A DNA stretch of 64,000 nt from contig OY762492.1 in NCBI GenBank assembly GCA_963665845.2, forward strand, positions 2,976,001 to 3,040,000. Direction: 5' to 3'. Under the pieces are notes generated by a model that worked only from the letters and a program-made list of their open reading frames with translations, was not told where the DNA came from and did not search any database. Each line of letters starts with the position of its first letter. Within the stretch, counting starts at the first letter, position 1. This document shows, one piece after another, positions 3,165 to 58,694 of the stretch. Position numbers and translations under genes: made by a program. This stretch comes from Candidatus Poribacteria bacterium (GTDB taxonomy: Bacteria; Poribacteria; WGA-4E; GCA-2687025).

Positions 3165-3460
3165 AAGGCGGACGGCTTCTGCGGCGCCTCTAGATTCCCG
3201 CTTGCGCGGGAATGCATGTCCTCGCGGAAGCGGGGGACAACCTGGGGCGCGGGAATGACGACCTGGGGCGCGGGAATGACGGCCTGGAGCGGCGGGCGGT
3301 GGCGTCAACTAAAAGCGCGGCGGCAGCAGACTCCCCCCTTGAAAAGGGGGGAAGGGGGGGTTTCCGCCGCTCGCGGCGGCGGGCGAACGCGGACGCCGTC
3401 TGCGGCGCCTCTGGATTCCCGCTTACGCGGGAATGACGATCCGGTTAGCGACGCTTTTTC
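3165..3460. repeat. Cluster of dRS3/REP-like palindromes and a CCCCCTTGAAAAGGGGG hairpin
   Basis: ATTCCCGCTTGCGCGGGAAT, CCTCGCGGAAGCGGGG, tandem GCGCGGGAATGAC copies, CCCCCTTGAAAAGGGGG, and the internal part of the MITE. Confidence 0.85.
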
Positions 3461-4527
3461 CGCTGGTCATCGCAGTTCTTTCGGCATGATGTCATCAGAG
3501 ACGGGTCTAGCGCCGCCTTGACGCCCCGCCGTTCCCGCGCGTATTGAACCGCCTCGTTCGCTTCGCTTAAAGAAAAACGGCGCGGTTTTAAATCGGACAG
3601 GTCGATTTCGCCGTCAACAATCATCTGCCGCGCTTCTTCCAGGCTCCGCCGCGTGAACGCCCATGAGGCGCGTATCGACACTCCTTGAAAATGCAGCTGT
3701 TCAAGATCGATGGCAAGCGTCCGCCCCGCCGGCGCCAGCCCGAAGTAGTTGACGCTGCCGCCGCGCCGCGCCGCGTCCATCGCCTGTTGAACCGCCGCTT
3801 CCGCCTCCGTCGCGACGATGACCGTATCGGCGCCGCCGTCGGTTAAGTCGCGCAGCTCGGCGTAACCTTCCGCGGTTGGCTCCAGCGCCGATACAGCCCC
3901 CCGCGCCAGCGCCTTGTCGCGCCGCTCCTTCACCGGCTCCATAACAAAAACGCGCGTCCCCGCCTTCGCCGCCAGCTGCGTGAACAACAGCCCGATCGGT
4001 CCCGCGCCCAGAATCGCCGCCGTCTCTTTCAACGGCGCGTCATGAACGGCGTTCAACACGCACCCCAGCGGCTCAACGAACATCAACCGCATCGGCGGCG
4101 TCTCCTCTGGGACATGCAGCAGCCCGCCCCGCTCCACGAGCGGCTTTGGCGCCGTCAGGTATTCGGCAAAACCGCCGTCGATGTCATGCCCGATGCCGTA
4201 AAGGTCTCGGCAATACCGATCTTGTCCGCGCCTGCATTCGCGGCACTCTCCGCATGAGATCATCGGGTTGACGCTGACGCGGTCGCCGACGCGCGCATGC
4301 GTTGAGCGCGACTCGACAACAACGGCGGCGATCTCATGCCCAAGCGCGACGGGCGGCGAATAGTCGGACGCGCCGCCGTCGATGGCGAGCAGGTCGGACG
4401 CGCACACGCCGCACAGGTCGATTTTCAACCGCGCCTCCCCCTCCGAAAGCGGCGGCAGGTTTCTCTCTTCCAACACAAGAGGTTGGTTCGCTTCATGAAA
4501 AAGGACGGTCTGATAACGGCGCGTCAT
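3445..4527 (-). CDS. Zn-dependent medium-chain alcohol/sugar dehydrogenase (MDR)
   Basis: CGVCASD, GHE, CGECRECRRGQDRYC structural Zn site, GAGPIG Rossmann motif. Confidence 0.9.
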   Translation of the reverse strand: MTRRYQTVLFHEANQPLVLEERNLPPLSEGEARLKIDLCGVCASDLLAIDGGASDYSPPVALGHEIAAVVVESRSTHARVGDRVSVNPMISCGECRECRRGQDRYCRDLYGIGHDIDGGFAEYLTAPKPLVERGGLLHVPEETPPMRLMFVEPLGCVLNAVHDAPLKETAAILGAGPIGLLFTQLAAKAGTRVFVMEPVKERRDKALARGAVSALEPTAEGYAELRDLTDGGADTVIVATEAEAAVQQAMDAARRGGSVNYFGLAPAGRTLAIDLEQLHFQGVSIRASWAFTRRSLEEARQMIVDGEIDLSDLKPRRFSLSEANEAVQYARERRGVKAALDPSLMTSCRKNCDDQRKKRR

Positions 4528-5300
4528 CGTTTTTTTTGTCCGTGTCGGTTGAAGTGGGCAATCCGCTCGGCAGGCAGGCGGGTTGAGAGGATCGGCTCCG
4601 CCTCTTTTTTCAGGTAACCCATCCGCAGGATGAGAATCGGTTCGCAGGTTTCGGGCGCGTCAAAGAGGCGGCGCGTTTCGTCCCGCCCTTCCGCCGTTTC
4701 CAGCGCGGCGACGGTGAACTGCGCGCCGATGCCGCGCTCCTCCGCCTCCAGCAGCATGTTTTGAAACATGGCGCCGATGGAAAGCAGCGTCCACACTTCG
4801 CCGTTGGCGCCGGGCGAAACGCGGTCGAGACGCCTGAAGACGACGCATAACAGCGGCGCTTCGGCGAGCGCCCGTTTGGCGGCGTTTCCAGGACCCGCCC
4901 CCGCGCCCAGTTTCGCCAGCGCGGCCGCGGCGCCGGGGCGTTTCAACAGCAATGGCGCCACCAACCGCGCGAACCCCGAATCGGGCAGCTGATCCTCCAG
5001 AAAGACGCCGTCCCCCGCCTCCAGCCACTCCTCCTCGGTGACGCGCGTCCAGCTCGCCGCCGCTTCCAAGAACGGGCGCCGCTTCATCTGCGCGGACATA
5101 TGGCGGCGCGTCAATTCGCCCAGCGCCTCCTTCTGCGCCGCCTCCGTTATGAACAGCAGCTCCCATGGCTGTATGTTGAACGGCGACGGCGCCCAGCGCG
5201 CCGCCTCGATGAGCGCGTCAATGTCCTCATCAAGGGGAGGCTTGTCTAAAAAATCGCGCCGTTGGCTGCGCCGTTGCCGTATCAGGTCAAGGGGCGTCAT
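4524..5300 (-). CDS. Nitroreductase family protein
   Basis: IRQRRSQR, AARWAPSPFNIQPW, GAMFQNMLLEAEERGIG motifs. Confidence 0.88.
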   Translation of the reverse strand: MTPLDLIRQRRSQRRDFLDKPPLDEDIDALIEAARWAPSPFNIQPWELLFITEAAQKEALGELTRRHMSAQMKRRPFLEAAASWTRVTEEEWLEAGDGVFLEDQLPDSGFARLVAPLLLKRPGAAAALAKLGAGAGPGNAAKRALAEAPLLCVVFRRLDRVSPGANGEVWTLLSIGAMFQNMLLEAEERGIGAQFTVAALETAEGRDETRRLFDAPETCEPILILRMGYLKKEAEPILSTRLPAERIAHFNRHGQKKR

Positions 5301-6276
5301 CGCGCTCTACAACTTGAATCGAGGCGCCGCGGTTGTTCGCGCGGACAATGCGCGTGAATCCAGGGTTGCCCGCTTTTTTAAAAAACTGCTCAGCCGTCTG
5401 TTTCAGCGCGTCAAGATTCTCGCCGAAGACAGCCATCGTCGGTCCCCAGCTGCTCATGGCGGCGCCGTATGCGCCTTCGCGCCGTAGATGTTCCGCCGTC
5501 TCCCGCACGATCGGCTCCTGAACCTGCCACTCCACCTTTTTCCATCCAACGCCCCCCATCGCGTCCAGGGCGGCGGCGGCGGTCTGCAGATCGTTTTCCG
5601 CCAGCGCAGGCAGGAGGCTCATCGTCAGCAGGTGCGAGACGCGTTCAGCGGCGCGCGGCGGCATCGGACATTTAGAACGAAAAAGCCGTTTCTCCTCCTC
5701 GCCGGAAACCTGCCGCGCGCGCGGCGACACCAGCAGCATCTTCCAGTCAGGGAAATCGCGCCTCAACAGCAACGGACCGGGACCGACGCCTTCAGCCGCC
5801 GCGGACGGCAGAAAGTCATCTTTTTGAGACGGAAAGCGATGCCCCCCGTCCACAAGGAAACCGCCCTTTTCAAAAGCGTACAGACCAATCCCGGACGCGC
5901 CCCCCCGACCCGACAGCGCCGCCGCCTCTTCAGCCGACAACGGAATCTCGTATAAAGCGGCAAGCGCATGGATAACGGACAACGCCGCCTGCGTCCCTGA
6001 ACCCAAGCCGACATGCGCCGGTATCGTCTCCTCATAACGCAGATGAACGCCGCCGACCTTCCACAGGGCGCGCAGCCGTTTCGCCAACCGCTCCACGCGC
6101 TCTTGATGGACGCCCGCGCCCACCGCCTCCACGCGCTCCGCCTTCCGCGCCTCCAATACAAAGCTGGGCTTTTCAAGCGTCAGCCCGATGCTGCCGTCGA
6201 TGCGCCCCAGCCGACCTGTCAGATCGATCAGCCCGAAATGCAGGCGCGAGGGCGTTTCGATGCGTACCGTTTTCAC
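5287..6276 (-). CDS. Beta-ribofuranosylaminobenzene 5'-phosphate (beta-RFAP) synthase family, GHMP kinase fold
   Basis: GTG start at 6276. PSRLHFGLIDL, PAHVGLGSGTQ, GRGGASGIG, GGFLVDGG and SSWGPT motifs. Confidence 0.85.
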   Translation of the reverse strand: MKTVRIETPSRLHFGLIDLTGRLGRIDGSIGLTLEKPSFVLEARKAERVEAVGAGVHQERVERLAKRLRALWKVGGVHLRYEETIPAHVGLGSGTQAALSVIHALAALYEIPLSAEEAAALSGRGGASGIGLYAFEKGGFLVDGGHRFPSQKDDFLPSAAAEGVGPGPLLLRRDFPDWKMLLVSPRARQVSGEEEKRLFRSKCPMPPRAAERVSHLLTMSLLPALAENDLQTAAAALDAMGGVGWKKVEWQVQEPIVRETAEHLRREGAYGAAMSSWGPTMAVFGENLDALKQTAEQFFKKAGNPGFTRIVRANNRGASIQVVERDDAP

Positions 6277-6280
6277 CGGC

Positions 6281-6859
6281 TCATCGGCTTTTGAGTTCCG
6301 CCCAGACAGACGCGGCGCGGTTCTTTGGCGAAACGGACATCGGATTGTCCAGCAGCGACAGCGCCTGCTCCAATACCTTGTCGGCGGAGGGGCGGTCAGC
6401 CTTGTCGGCGCCGACATATTTCCACGCGGCGACGCCGCTGCTGTCTAGAACAAAGACAGCCGGCTTTGCAATGTTCGCCGCCGCATTCAAGATGTCGTAC
6501 GCCTTGATTGTCTCTCGGCTGACGTCGCTCAACAGCGGAAAGGTTAGGCTATGCCGCTCTTTCATCTGCTTGGCGGTCGCTGTCGGGTCGACGCTGATTG
6601 CCAGCAGCCCGATCTCGTTCGTTTCAAAGACATCGATCTTTTCCTGCAGCTCCACGAGCTGCTCATTGCAAAACGGTCAGAACATGCCGCGGTAAAACAC
6701 GAGAACGCATGGCTTTCCGCGGTAATCTTTCAGTTTAACGGTCTCATTTTCCGTGTTCGGCAGTTCAAAAAGCGGCGCGCTCTCGCCGACATCCAGAGCC
6801 GAGGCGGTCAAAGCAAACGGCAAAAACAGCGCGGCGGCAAACAAAGCGGACGGTTTCAT
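6281..6859 (-). CDS. Exported peroxiredoxin-like (AhpC/TSA) selenoprotein, UxxC (U-P-F-C); in-frame TGA at 6677-6679
   Basis: ORFs 6677..6859 and 6281..6655 are in frame: VFYRGMF-TGA-PFCNEQLVELQ. The TGA sits at the first Cys of the thioredoxin CxxC. SECIS-like hairpin follows; signal peptide present. Confidence 0.85.
6646..6662 (-). other. Putative bacterial SECIS hairpin
   Basis: GCAGCTC-GTG-GAGCTGC stem-loop starting 14 nt after the UGA, with G in the apical loop. Confidence 0.7.
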
Positions 6860-7443
6860 GGCGTTCGTTCTTTCGGCGTTGGTTGAAGCGGGCGTATCTG
6901 ATCTAGTATCGCGTTCACGGAGGGGCGGTCTGCCTTGTTATCGCCGACATATTTCCATGCGACGACGCCTGACGAGTCGATGACGAAGACGGCGGGCTTC
7001 GCAATCTGCCCGCTTTCAACGCCGTATTCGCGTATCGTTAAGCGGGCCGGGTCGCTCAACACATTATACTCAAGGCTGTTTTCGTTCGCCATCGCCTGCG
7101 CGTTTTCCAAGTTGTCGGCGCTCAACGCCACGAGACGCGCGCCGAGGCGCTGAAAACGGTTCAGGTTCTGTTGCAGCTCCACGAGCTGCTCGCTGCAATT
7201 CGGTCACCACAAGCCGCGGTAAAAAACAAGAACGACAGGCGCGCCTTCCGCCCCGTTGAGCGACCAGTCGCCGCTGGAGCCGCTCAAGGCGAATGGCGGC
7301 GCTTGCTGCCCGACCTCGTTTCCGACGCGGATCTGCGGCGCCGGCGTCTCGGCGGCAGGTTTGGATGAGCAGGCGGCGAAGACCATCGACAGCGCGAGAG
7401 CGGAACAGGCGGGCAGCGTCCAACGGCGCATCGTTTTCTCCAT
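6856..7443 (-). CDS. Lipoprotein peroxiredoxin-like (AhpC/TSA) selenoprotein, UxxC (U-P-N-C); in-frame TGA at 7204-7206
   Basis: ORFs 7204..7443 and 6856..7182 are in frame: VFYRGLW-TGA-PNCSEQLVELQ. Lipobox FAA-C. Paralog of the adjacent gene. Confidence 0.85.
7173..7189 (-). other. Putative bacterial SECIS hairpin
   Basis: Identical GCAGCTC-GTG-GAGCTGC hairpin, also 14 nt after the UGA. Confidence 0.7.
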
Positions 7444-7502
7444 TTCGGTTGACAGCGTTTCCAGGCGCTCGGCGGCGCGGCAGGTTGAATCGCATCCATT
7501 AT

Positions 7503-7531: not shown

Positions 7532-7634
7532 ACGGCGCCCGTCGTCATTCCCGTGAAAACGGGAATCTTAGGCGTCGGAGACGCCTACATATCGCGTCTC
7601 CGACCAACATCATCGCATGAGCGTACTACCTGAT

Positions 7635-7885
7635 TGACCTTACGTCTTTAGTTGGGACATGCCGGCGGGCGGACGCGGACGGTTTCTGCGGCGCCTCTGG
7701 ATTCCCGCACGTTTTACCGCACGGGCGGGAATGACGACCTGGGATGCGGCATGTCGGGCGGAATGCCGCCTTTCGGCAATTCTCCTGGCAATCTTTTCAA
7801 TCATGCAAATCTTAGTTCAGACGACAACTACGGCGGCTACGGTCTAAGATTCCCGCATGTTTCACCGCAAGGGCGGGAATGACGA
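7635..7885. repeat. Composite repeat (MITE half, REP hairpins, AATCTTTTCAATC module), copy 1
   Basis: Closely similar to 9849..10070, in direct orientation. Confidence 0.8.
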
Positions 7886-57911: not shown

Positions 57912-58694
57912 TTACTGCGTTTTGACGTCCGCCCAGGTCGCCGCCAGTTTGCCGCGCGGGTCGACGGAGAGCAGCGTCGTCAGCCCCTCGTTCATGAGCG
58001 TCTGCATGTCGTCCGTCGTCAGCGCGGCGCTAAACAGCGCCACTTCGGACAGCATGCCGTTCAGCGTCTCGGAGGTGTTGTCCGTCCATCCGCCGATGTT
58101 GACAGGGGTGTCGTTGCGCGGCGCGGGCGGTCCGAGTCCGCCTGTGAAGCCGATCTCGACGCCGTTTTCGTAGATGCGGATCGTTCCCTCGCCATCGTAG
58201 GTCGCGGTCATGTAGAGCCAGACGCCCTTCTTGACGGAACCCTTGCCCCATGCGCCTTTCCAGCCGTTATTCGCAAAATACGCTTCCCAGCCGGTTCCGT
58301 TGTTGCTCGTTCTGAAGGCGTAATTGGCGACCGTGACGCCATGGGGCCGTTTCGCCAAAATATGCCCGTAGCTGGTTTCGGCGTTGTTGACAAATATCCA
58401 TGCGGTGATTGTCCATGCGCCGTCGATGTAGAGGCTGTCGGAATCGGGAATGATGACGCGGTCGTCGTTGCCGTTGAGGCTCAAGGCGGGGCGTCCTTCG
58501 CGCCCGTCGACCCATTCGCCGCCTTGACGTTCGCCGTCGTTGCCGTTGTCGGAGCTGTCTTTAATCTTGTCGCCGCTGCCTTCGTCCAGCAGCCAGATGC
58601 CGCGCGCGTCTTCAAAGTTCAGTTCTGCCTGCGCCGCCGACGCGAAGATCAAGCCGACCGCCGCCGCCGAAACGCAGATCGTTTTCCATGTCAT
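57912..58694 (-). CDS. Secreted LamG/ConA-like domain protein with SVDPRGKLAATWADVK tail
   Basis: WLLDEGSG..IKDSS.NGNDG, TITAWI, ATYDG..IRIYENG, NIGG, LSEVALFSAALT; signal peptide. Confidence 0.88.
   Translation of the reverse strand: MTWKTICVSAAAVGLIFASAAQAELNFEDARGIWLLDEGSGDKIKDSSDNGNDGERQGGEWVDGREGRPALSLNGNDDRVIIPDSDSLYIDGAWTITAWIFVNNAETSYGHILAKRPHGVTVANYAFRTSNNGTGWEAYFANNGWKGAWGKGSVKKGVWLYMTATYDGEGTIRIYENGVEIGFTGGLGPPAPRNDTPVNIGGWTDNTSETLNGMLSEVALFSAALTTDDMQTLMNEGLTTLLSVDPRGKLAATWADVKTQ

Follow-up and report, generated by a model that had tools for sequence, protein, structure and literature searches.

A tandem pair of probable exported selenoproteins in Candidatus Poribacteria, divided by gene callers at in-frame UGA codons

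Two redoxin genes with in-frame UGA codons

The DNA examined here is a window of 64,000 nucleotides from a Candidatus Poribacteria genome (assembly GCA_963665845.2, contig OY762492.1, positions 2,976,001 to 3,040,000), the minus strand of which carries four short open reading frames (ORFs; genetic code table 11) at 7204-7443, 6856-7182, 6677-6859 and 6281-6655. When TGA is read as selenocysteine (Sec, U), the four ORFs become two AhpC-TSA/redoxin genes, each with a UxxC motif, which overlap in the sequence ATGA. An initial annotation, made from the letters alone, had joined the ORFs through a TGA at the same aligned position, and the domain content of the products bears this out: each joined protein contains one PF00578 AhpC-TSA domain that spans the TGA (102 bits in gene 1 and 118 bits in gene 2; cut-off 26). 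Both neighbouring genes most likely encode redox enzymes that contain selenium and are exported, and gene callers split each gene into two pieces. The features of the pair, including the hairpins that would act as selenocysteine insertion sequence (SECIS) elements, are as follows.

6856..7443, minus strand: gene 1, predicted lipoprotein selenoprotein, 195 amino acids, FYRGLW-U80-PNC (U80-P-N-C83)
7369..7443, minus strand: predicted lipoprotein signal peptide of gene 1, lipobox FAAC, Cys25 (from sequence and an in-house heuristic)
7204..7206, minus strand: in-frame TGA of gene 1, predicted Sec80, aligned with TGA in 47 and TGY in 4 family members
7173..7189, minus strand: putative SECIS hairpin of gene 1, 7-bp stem, GUG loop 21 nucleotides after the UGA, -10.1 kcal/mol
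6281..6859, minus strand: gene 2, predicted secreted selenoprotein, 192 amino acids, FYRGMF-U61-PFC (U61-P-F-C64), with a C-terminal tail
6797..6859, minus strand: predicted cleavable signal peptide of gene 2, residues 1-21, ASA-type site (from sequence and an in-house heuristic)
6677..6679, minus strand: in-frame TGA of gene 2, predicted Sec61, replaced by Cys in the syntenic ortholog of genome G004
6646..6662, minus strand: putative SECIS hairpin of gene 2, with the same sequence as in gene 1
6284..6337, minus strand: C-terminal tail of gene 2, SVxPxxK/RxxxxWxxLK type, about 18 amino acids

Positions 6200-7500 are present in single contigs of four public runs with zero letter differences, so the TGAs are not an error of one assembly; the runs belong to one study with at most three samples and are possibly the source of the present DNA. 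Contigs from RNA libraries of related strains (about 90-96% alike to the present DNA; two studies, one labelled sponge metagenome) cover the UGA region of gene 2 in three runs and were not counted as evidence of transcription, which contigs cannot show. Standard pipelines had been expected to split genes of this kind, and nine database matches do begin just 3′ of the UGA and contain downstream halves only; the present reading corrects the annotation of these truncated entries in public protein sets.

The genes whose absence had been held to speak against recoding are all present. The genome, which is 90% complete, contains selA (564 bits), selB (321 bits) and selD (350 bits), all above cut-off, with selA and selB adjoining, and selC, the gene for tRNA-Sec, was found both by ARAGORN and by Rfam (70.6 bits). 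SelD itself contains an in-frame TGA, in the context CAG-U. Decoding of UGA as another residue, such as Trp, is opposed by the role of TGA as an ordinary stop in this genome, where it terminates both genes and many of their neighbours, and by the tRNA complement, in which tRNA-Sec is the sole tRNA with a TCA anticodon and stands beside a normal tRNA-Trp(CCA). A second, frame-broken selA with a partial selB lies on the small contig C3 (G000:C3:1436-3984; G000 denotes the present genome) beside broken PorU-like pieces, and may represent either a variant strain or a duplicate contig rich in errors.

Of 20,964 in-frame TGAs examined in an unbiased scan, 14 passed filters for coding on both sides and for a hairpin, and three paralogs of the present family ranked first to third among them. 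The third paralog, L017 (G000:C1:548786-549289, minus strand), reads FYRGHW-U-PVC, with the identical 17-mer hairpin and a lipoprotein-like N-terminus; it has no Pro at the cis-Pro position and contains an insertion of approximately 10 residues. Further selenoprotein candidates, L073-L075, lie at G000:C1:856375 (minus), 3849203 (plus) and 944378 (plus), with hairpins at 18-21 nucleotides. They include a TlpA-like protein with WASW-U-GC and C-terminal repeats resembling tetratricopeptide repeats, a protein that resembles SelW and contains CTA-U, and a protein with a signal peptide and DPLGCV-U-NN, the upstream half of which gave no meaningful NCBIfam match.

The hairpin in the pair and among relatives

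The 17-mer GCAGCTC-GTG-GAGCTGC begins 14 nucleotides 3′ of each TGA, at 7173-7189 and 6646-6662, as the initial annotation had noted in describing a SECIS-like element with a G in the apical loop. The consensus for bacterial SECIS elements consists of a loop of 3-9 nucleotides with G among its first two positions, a stem of 4-16 bp, a distance of 16-37 nucleotides from the UGA, and a minimum free energy of -7.5 kcal/mol or lower (PMC13188914). With a 3-nucleotide loop (GUG), a 7-bp stem, a spacing of 21 nucleotides and -10.1 kcal/mol, the hairpin of the pair lies within every one of these limits. A further statement, that the neighbouring codons diverge, holds in part, as codons -6 to -3, +1, +3 and +5 are likewise identical between the two genes. 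Because the hairpin overlies the conserved peptide QLVEL and nearby codons are identical as well, the pair alone cannot separate constraint on RNA from constraint on protein. Folding energy is unexceptional, in that when the two 48-nucleotide segments are shuffled, 38 and 34 of 200 sequences, respectively, fold as well (z -0.86 and -1.06), and it was dropped as evidence for the hairpin. An Rfam search of the window returned two tRNAs only and no SECIS family.

Comparison with relatives settles the question, since it reveals synonymous covariation within the stem. A search of 41 genomes found homologs in 36, almost all of them interrupted by a single internal TGA. Fetched loci yielded 54 motif rows, consisting of 47 Sec forms, four Cys forms and three WAxW-type Cys proteins that were set aside. 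The resulting set of 51 members is drawn from fetched loci only (without L050, L059-L064, L066-L068, L070 and L072, in which the motif pattern was unmatched), and most homolog matches listed in the 41 genomes lie outside it. The 6-bp core of the hairpin is fully paired in 45 of the 47 Sec forms and in none of the four Cys forms, and it is also broken in a fifth Cys form (the P0008 frame); the loop begins with G in 46 of 47 Sec forms. The third base of the paired Gln codon covaries with the first base of the paired Leu codon (A-U 28, G-C 14, G-U 5, A-C 0), and the mismatched combination CAA..CTG, for which gene-wise codon use predicts 9.9 occurrences, was never observed. For the paired Leu codon 44 of 47 genes use CTC (9.7 expected), and for the paired Glu codon 42 of 44 use GAG (17.3 expected), both holding even where the GC content of third codon positions is near 0.2. 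The adjacent, unpaired Gln codon, used as a control, exhibits no coupling, which together with the gene-wise codon expectation rules out GC content as the source of the covariation. Across the alignment, 93.9% of cells are paired compared to 90.0% in shuffles (0 of 500 as high), while slid controls reach at most 50.8%.

Three points weigh on the other side. The outer pair of the stem does not form in 17 of the 47 Sec forms, the number of further pair types does not exceed that in shuffles (98 of 500), and genome G004, the source of the Cys-form control, is just 61% complete. In addition, related genomes are not independent, so that the figures are to be read as counts and not as probabilities. 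The hairpin is nevertheless clearly under selection at the RNA level, with synonymous compensation. The family thus provides a clean natural case of a coding-region SECIS that is kept by synonymous changes and lost on reversion to Cys, and it should be useful for SECIS models.

The pattern extends across the phylum, where TGA-N6-TGY-N6-CARCTCGNNGAGYTG was matched in 112 of 121 genomes, up to five times in each, and a reversed control gave no match; most sampled genomes accordingly carry one to five Sec redoxins of this family. Among the 150 matches listed of 235, one contains an A-C mismatch (G048). A locus scan with a single protein returned two loci, and a locus 91% identical to gene 2 was found. 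Other architectures were noted as well. In G020, one frame (L030:1624 and 2098) contains a tandem of two redoxin domains, both of which have a separate TGA and hairpin, and is predicted to encode a two-Sec protein with a 190-residue C-terminal domain; the same pattern occurs at G124:C1:655739 and 656213. In loci L035-L049 (families f6 and f8), Sec redoxin domains of lipoproteins follow a beta-rich domain that is present in one to three repeats, and the genes often form clusters of two or three.

The Cys forms come largely from G004, in which selA, selB, selD and tRNA-Sec all lack a match over cut-off; selA was found in 36 of the 41 genomes. G004 contains four homologs, all with Cys and none with an internal stop, and the one directly upstream of its beta-ribofuranosylaminobenzene 5′-phosphate (beta-RFAP) synthase family gene reads FYRGLF-C-PFC. 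Two of these Cys forms are nested in the gene 2 clade among Sec forms of two other genera (55-row tree, support 97/95, long branches flagged), and this position suggests reversion from Sec to Cys. One of the gene 2 clade Cys forms, L029 (G004:C115), ends in what we take to be a dockerin-like repeat in place of the short tail. In another genome, G010, selA was unmatched, yet a Sec-type selD and tRNA-Sec are present, which identifies it as a Sec user with an incomplete assembly. Database homologs also have Cys at the TGA position, as recoding would require: 128 of 137 proteins align over it, with 67 Cys, 41 Ser and 19 Thr (the Ser and Thr forms being true peroxiredoxins), and one Trp, the last in a protein that has no CxxC. 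The remaining nine are the truncated entries described above.

These observations bear on the possibility that the TGAs are true stops, so that the genes would be pseudogenes or split genes, or that UGA is read as a residue other than Sec. The first of these would account for the downstream halves that stand alone in public gene calls and would sit easily with the unremarkable hairpin energy. Against it, TGA occupies the same catalytic codon in 47 genes from many genera with frames intact on both sides, a Cys codon replaces it where no Sec genes were found, and the hairpin is conserved synonymously. Taken together with the tRNA complement, these data render the possibility extremely improbable.

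The identity of the two hairpins reflects selection and not recent duplication. The pair had been described as duplicated, and the two genes are indeed paralogs, but not recent ones. Their proteins are 46% identical, and the order lipoprotein or signal-peptide gene, tail-bearing gene, beta-RFAP, nitroreductase, zinc dehydrogenase is found in G000, G001 and G005-G007, the last three of which represent another genus; the duplication is therefore judged old. Gene 2 orthologs from three genera form one clade apart from gene 1, while gene 1 orthologs from two genera are not resolved together in the tree. The 3.98-Mb genome contains the exact 17-mer in three places, the third of them 3′ of the TGA of the unlinked paralog (C1:549172). 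The protein divergence, the unlinked copy and the separate grouping of gene 2 orthologs rule out that the hairpins are identical through recent duplication or gene conversion.

Family, fold and probable chemistry

Both genes belong to the ‘Prx-like 1’ selenoproteins (PF00578, UxxC), which is a known family and not a new one. ‘Prx-like’ UxxC proteins were counted as a known selenoprotein family in 2005 (PMC1088965), ‘Prx-like 1’ comprised 225 sequences in the 2008 Global Ocean Sampling (GOS) data set (PMC2398784), and a Prx-like thiol:disulfide oxidoreductase is listed in catalogues from 2022 and 2026 (PMC9312934, PMC13188914). The GOS supplement contains FYRG 49 times, and its Prx-like 1 section includes FYRGHW-U-PYC and a lipoprotein-like read with FYRGYF-U-GIC-xx-QLGEL; adjacent selenoprotein genes were also observed in those data (PMC2398784). 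Exported bacterial selenoproteins, including lipoprotein forms of SaoX, are described in another report (bioRxiv 2022.07.06.499078). Neither PMC2398784 nor PMC13188914 uses the term ‘signal peptide’ in its main text. The present genes have in common with Prx-like 1 the PF00578 domain, UxxC where Sec-peroxiredoxins have TxxU, homologs with Cys at the Sec position and, by eye rather than by alignment with the GOS members, the context FYRGxx-U-xxC-xx-QL. They differ in forming a tandem pair with two different export signals and a tail on gene 2, and in a lineage-wide expansion of paralogs with one near-fixed SECIS. No new mechanism is involved, as earlier publications already describe the family, its UxxC motif and the export of bacterial selenoproteins (PMC1088965, PMC2398784, bioRxiv 2022.07.06.499078); the lineage-wide spread and the gene 2 tail are additions at the level of the lineage. 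In a search that left most subscription journals outside its scope, just one source naming both Poribacteria and selenoproteins was found, and it concerns hydrogenases (PMC13582414). A search of the supplements of PMC13326102, the text of which is possibly incomplete, and of PMC12013277 gave no match to ‘Poribacteria’.

An AlphaFold model of gene 2 residues 21-192 (mean predicted local distance difference test score 92.6; 50-65 in the tail) predicts a PrxQ/AhpE-like fold. In both sequence and modelled fold the closest proteins are PrxQ/BCP and AhpE peroxiredoxins (PDB 3hjp, 2cx3, 1xxu and 5id2), with root-mean-square deviations of 1.2-1.6 Å (Bcp4, 1.3 Å) and Z scores up to 26.1, the value for AhpE. 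ResA gave Z 20.4 and human PRXL2B, the prostamide/prostaglandin F synthase, gave Z 17.1 with 16% identity. Alignment to the peroxiredoxins places Cys64 at the peroxidatic Cys, Sec61 at the Thr/Ser of PxxxT/SxxC, Arg57 at the Pro of that motif and Pro133 at the catalytic Arg. Unlike PrxQ/BCP and AhpE, the present proteins lack both PxxxT/SxxC and the distal catalytic Arg, and have predicted export signals. Within the family, Arg57 is kept in 46 of 51 members and Pro133, at the cis-Pro position, in 40 of 51, and there is no other conserved Cys. Database homologs fall into two clean types, R/CxxC/P (55 proteins) and P/S-or-T-xxC/R (59); two of the 55 are named ‘peroxiredoxin-like family protein’ and are FYRGxWCPxC Cys forms. 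The best NCBIfam match, the SelL-related redox protein (NF040769; 65.8 and 66.8 bits), is under its 120-bit cut-off with partial coverage, so that membership is not indicated. The Sec-peroxiredoxin PrxU (NF040737, TxxU) scored 22-47 bits versus a cut-off of 270, and Sec in the present proteins lies three residues before the peroxidatic position.

In thioredoxin-fold chemistry, a selenolate at the first position is the nucleophile, and a second-position Cys resolves it to a selenenylsulfide. Applied to the pair, such a scheme would begin with SelB bound to the hairpin, which would almost certainly insert Sec at the UGA. The Sec translocon would very probably export both proteins, protein 1 becoming lipid-anchored at Cys25 and protein 2 being cleaved, and the lineage-specific C-terminal tail may address protein 2 further. 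The selenolate at the first UxxC position would act as nucleophile and be oxidised by substrate, the second-position Cys would close the selenenylsulfide, and Arg57, at position -4 relative to Sec, would take the place of the Arg that peroxiredoxins have and these proteins lack. The genome contains a single PF02683 DsbD gene (822-amino-acid frame with a C-terminal thioredoxin domain), which is likely the electron source of the selenoproteins and would carry electrons from the cytoplasm through the membrane, so that the Se-S bond is reduced again.

The pair most likely encode exported selenoenzymes; that these act in the cell envelope by reducing peroxides, or small oxidants of a similar kind, is an evenly balanced proposition. 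A peroxide-type substrate, for which by analogy the chances appear about equal either way, is favoured over protein disulfides because of the fold and because PRXL2B has the same layout, an Arg four residues before CxxC together with a Pro at the cis-Pro position. Human PRXL2B reduces an endoperoxide, its substrate being prostaglandin H2, and employs Cys and not Sec (PMC12938796). Also on the side of a peroxide-type role, a Prx-like protein of Anabaena, Alr4642, reportedly protects against oxidative stress. Several considerations tell against a peroxidase role. The peroxiredoxin triad of Pro, Thr/Ser and Arg is absent, with Arg57, Sec61 and Pro133 in those positions; a CxxC combined with Pro at the cis-Pro position is how disulfide reductases are arranged; PRXL2B is a distant match that ranks below ResA; and the structural model carries Cys for Sec.

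With the same recoding and export, the proteins could instead be disulfide reductases or isomerases of the ResA/TlpA type, fed by DsbD and keeping envelope proteins reduced. UxxC at the thioredoxin CxxC position and the Pro at the cis-Pro position, which both proteins of the pair have and which is frequent in the family, agree with this, ResA is among the top NCBIfam and PDB matches, and predicted signal peptides and probable recycling by DsbD suit the class, with which the thioredoxin fold is also held in common. However, fold and sequence are nearer to PrxQ/AhpE than to ResA, FYRG here precedes the motif where ResA, TlpA and DsbE have WAxW, and NCBIfam scores for these proteins are all far under cut-off (ResA 44-64 bits versus 170; DsbE 28 versus 123). 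Pro133 is replaced in 11 of 51 members, the third paralog among them, and the genome holds separate Cys-type WAxWCxxC TlpA/ResA genes (L018-L020). A ResA/TlpA-type role therefore appears possible rather than probable.

Export signals, C-terminal tail and neighbouring genes

The two export signals described in the initial annotation, one of a lipoprotein and one cleavable, are again predicted here, with a FAAC lipobox at Cys25 in gene 1 and an ASA-type site after residue 21 in gene 2. By the in-house heuristic, a signal-like N-terminus is present in 49 of 51 family members and a lipobox-like motif in 31.

The tail of gene 2, which in the model forms a low-confidence linker and a helix, is common to about 100 exported proteins of varied kinds in the genome, including those at 195-1628 and 57912-58694 of the window (both minus strand). 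The motif was matched in 107 frames, in 104 of which it lies within 26 residues of the C-terminus, and a signal-peptide-like start was found in 91 of these 104 tail-bearing frames versus 266 of 1150 soluble controls. Within the redoxin family the tail is confined to gene 2 orthologs (five of 51 rows, plus P0008). The gene 2 C-terminus has no Pfam or NCBIfam match, and hence no type A or B sorting domain of the type IX secretion system. Frames of approximately 2000 amino acids gave PorU-like (235 bits; cut-off 420) and SprA-like (77 bits; cut-off 200) matches, and a literature search on the tail found nothing on Poribacteria. An uncatalogued sorting tail that sends the gene 2 selenoenzyme past the periplasm to the surface or exterior, alongside its membrane-anchored twin, is a tentative and rather unlikely proposal. 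If true, it would point to a phylum-wide, multi-paralog, selenium-based antioxidant system of the envelope that is invisible in public annotation.

Three genes follow the pair on the same strand.

5287..6276, minus strand: beta-RFAP synthase family gene (GHMP fold), in a probable operon; TIGR00144, 279 bits, cut-off 113.5
4524..5300, minus strand: nitroreductase-family gene, downstream; PF00881, 94 bits; same order in G001 and G005-G007
3445..4527, minus strand: zinc-binding dehydrogenase gene, downstream; PF08240 and PF00107; same order in G001 and G005-G007

The beta-RFAP gene adjoins gene 2 in six of eight genomes of family f1, to which the link between the pair and the downstream genes is confined. 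A shared pathway, in which the pair would serve these genes with, for example, the nitroreductase as electron donor, could explain the five-gene order in G000, G001 and G005-G007 and the junction of gene 2 with beta-RFAP in G004 too, and a peroxiredoxin-nitroreductase fusion exists in the PDB (4eo3, Z 20.6). The three downstream proteins have no signal peptide, which would place them in another compartment, and outside f1 beta-RFAP is not beside any listed redoxin match, as compared by eye from coordinates; such a pathway is accordingly regarded as improbable. The beta-RFAP synthase family gene, which is of archaeal type, was found in 40 of the 41 genomes, and the family name implies the first step of methanopterin synthesis. 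A methanopterin one-carbon pathway was rejected as its context, mch not being found in this 90% complete genome.

Upstream of the pair, a single sigma-70-like site at 7532-7503 was rejected as a promoter candidate, as it is not above chance (one found; 0.6 +/- 0.8 expected). Intergenic palindromic repeats of the TGGATTCCCGC type occur at approximately 3400-3460 and 7540-7700 and recur around the window, and they are covered very deeply by RNA-library contigs.

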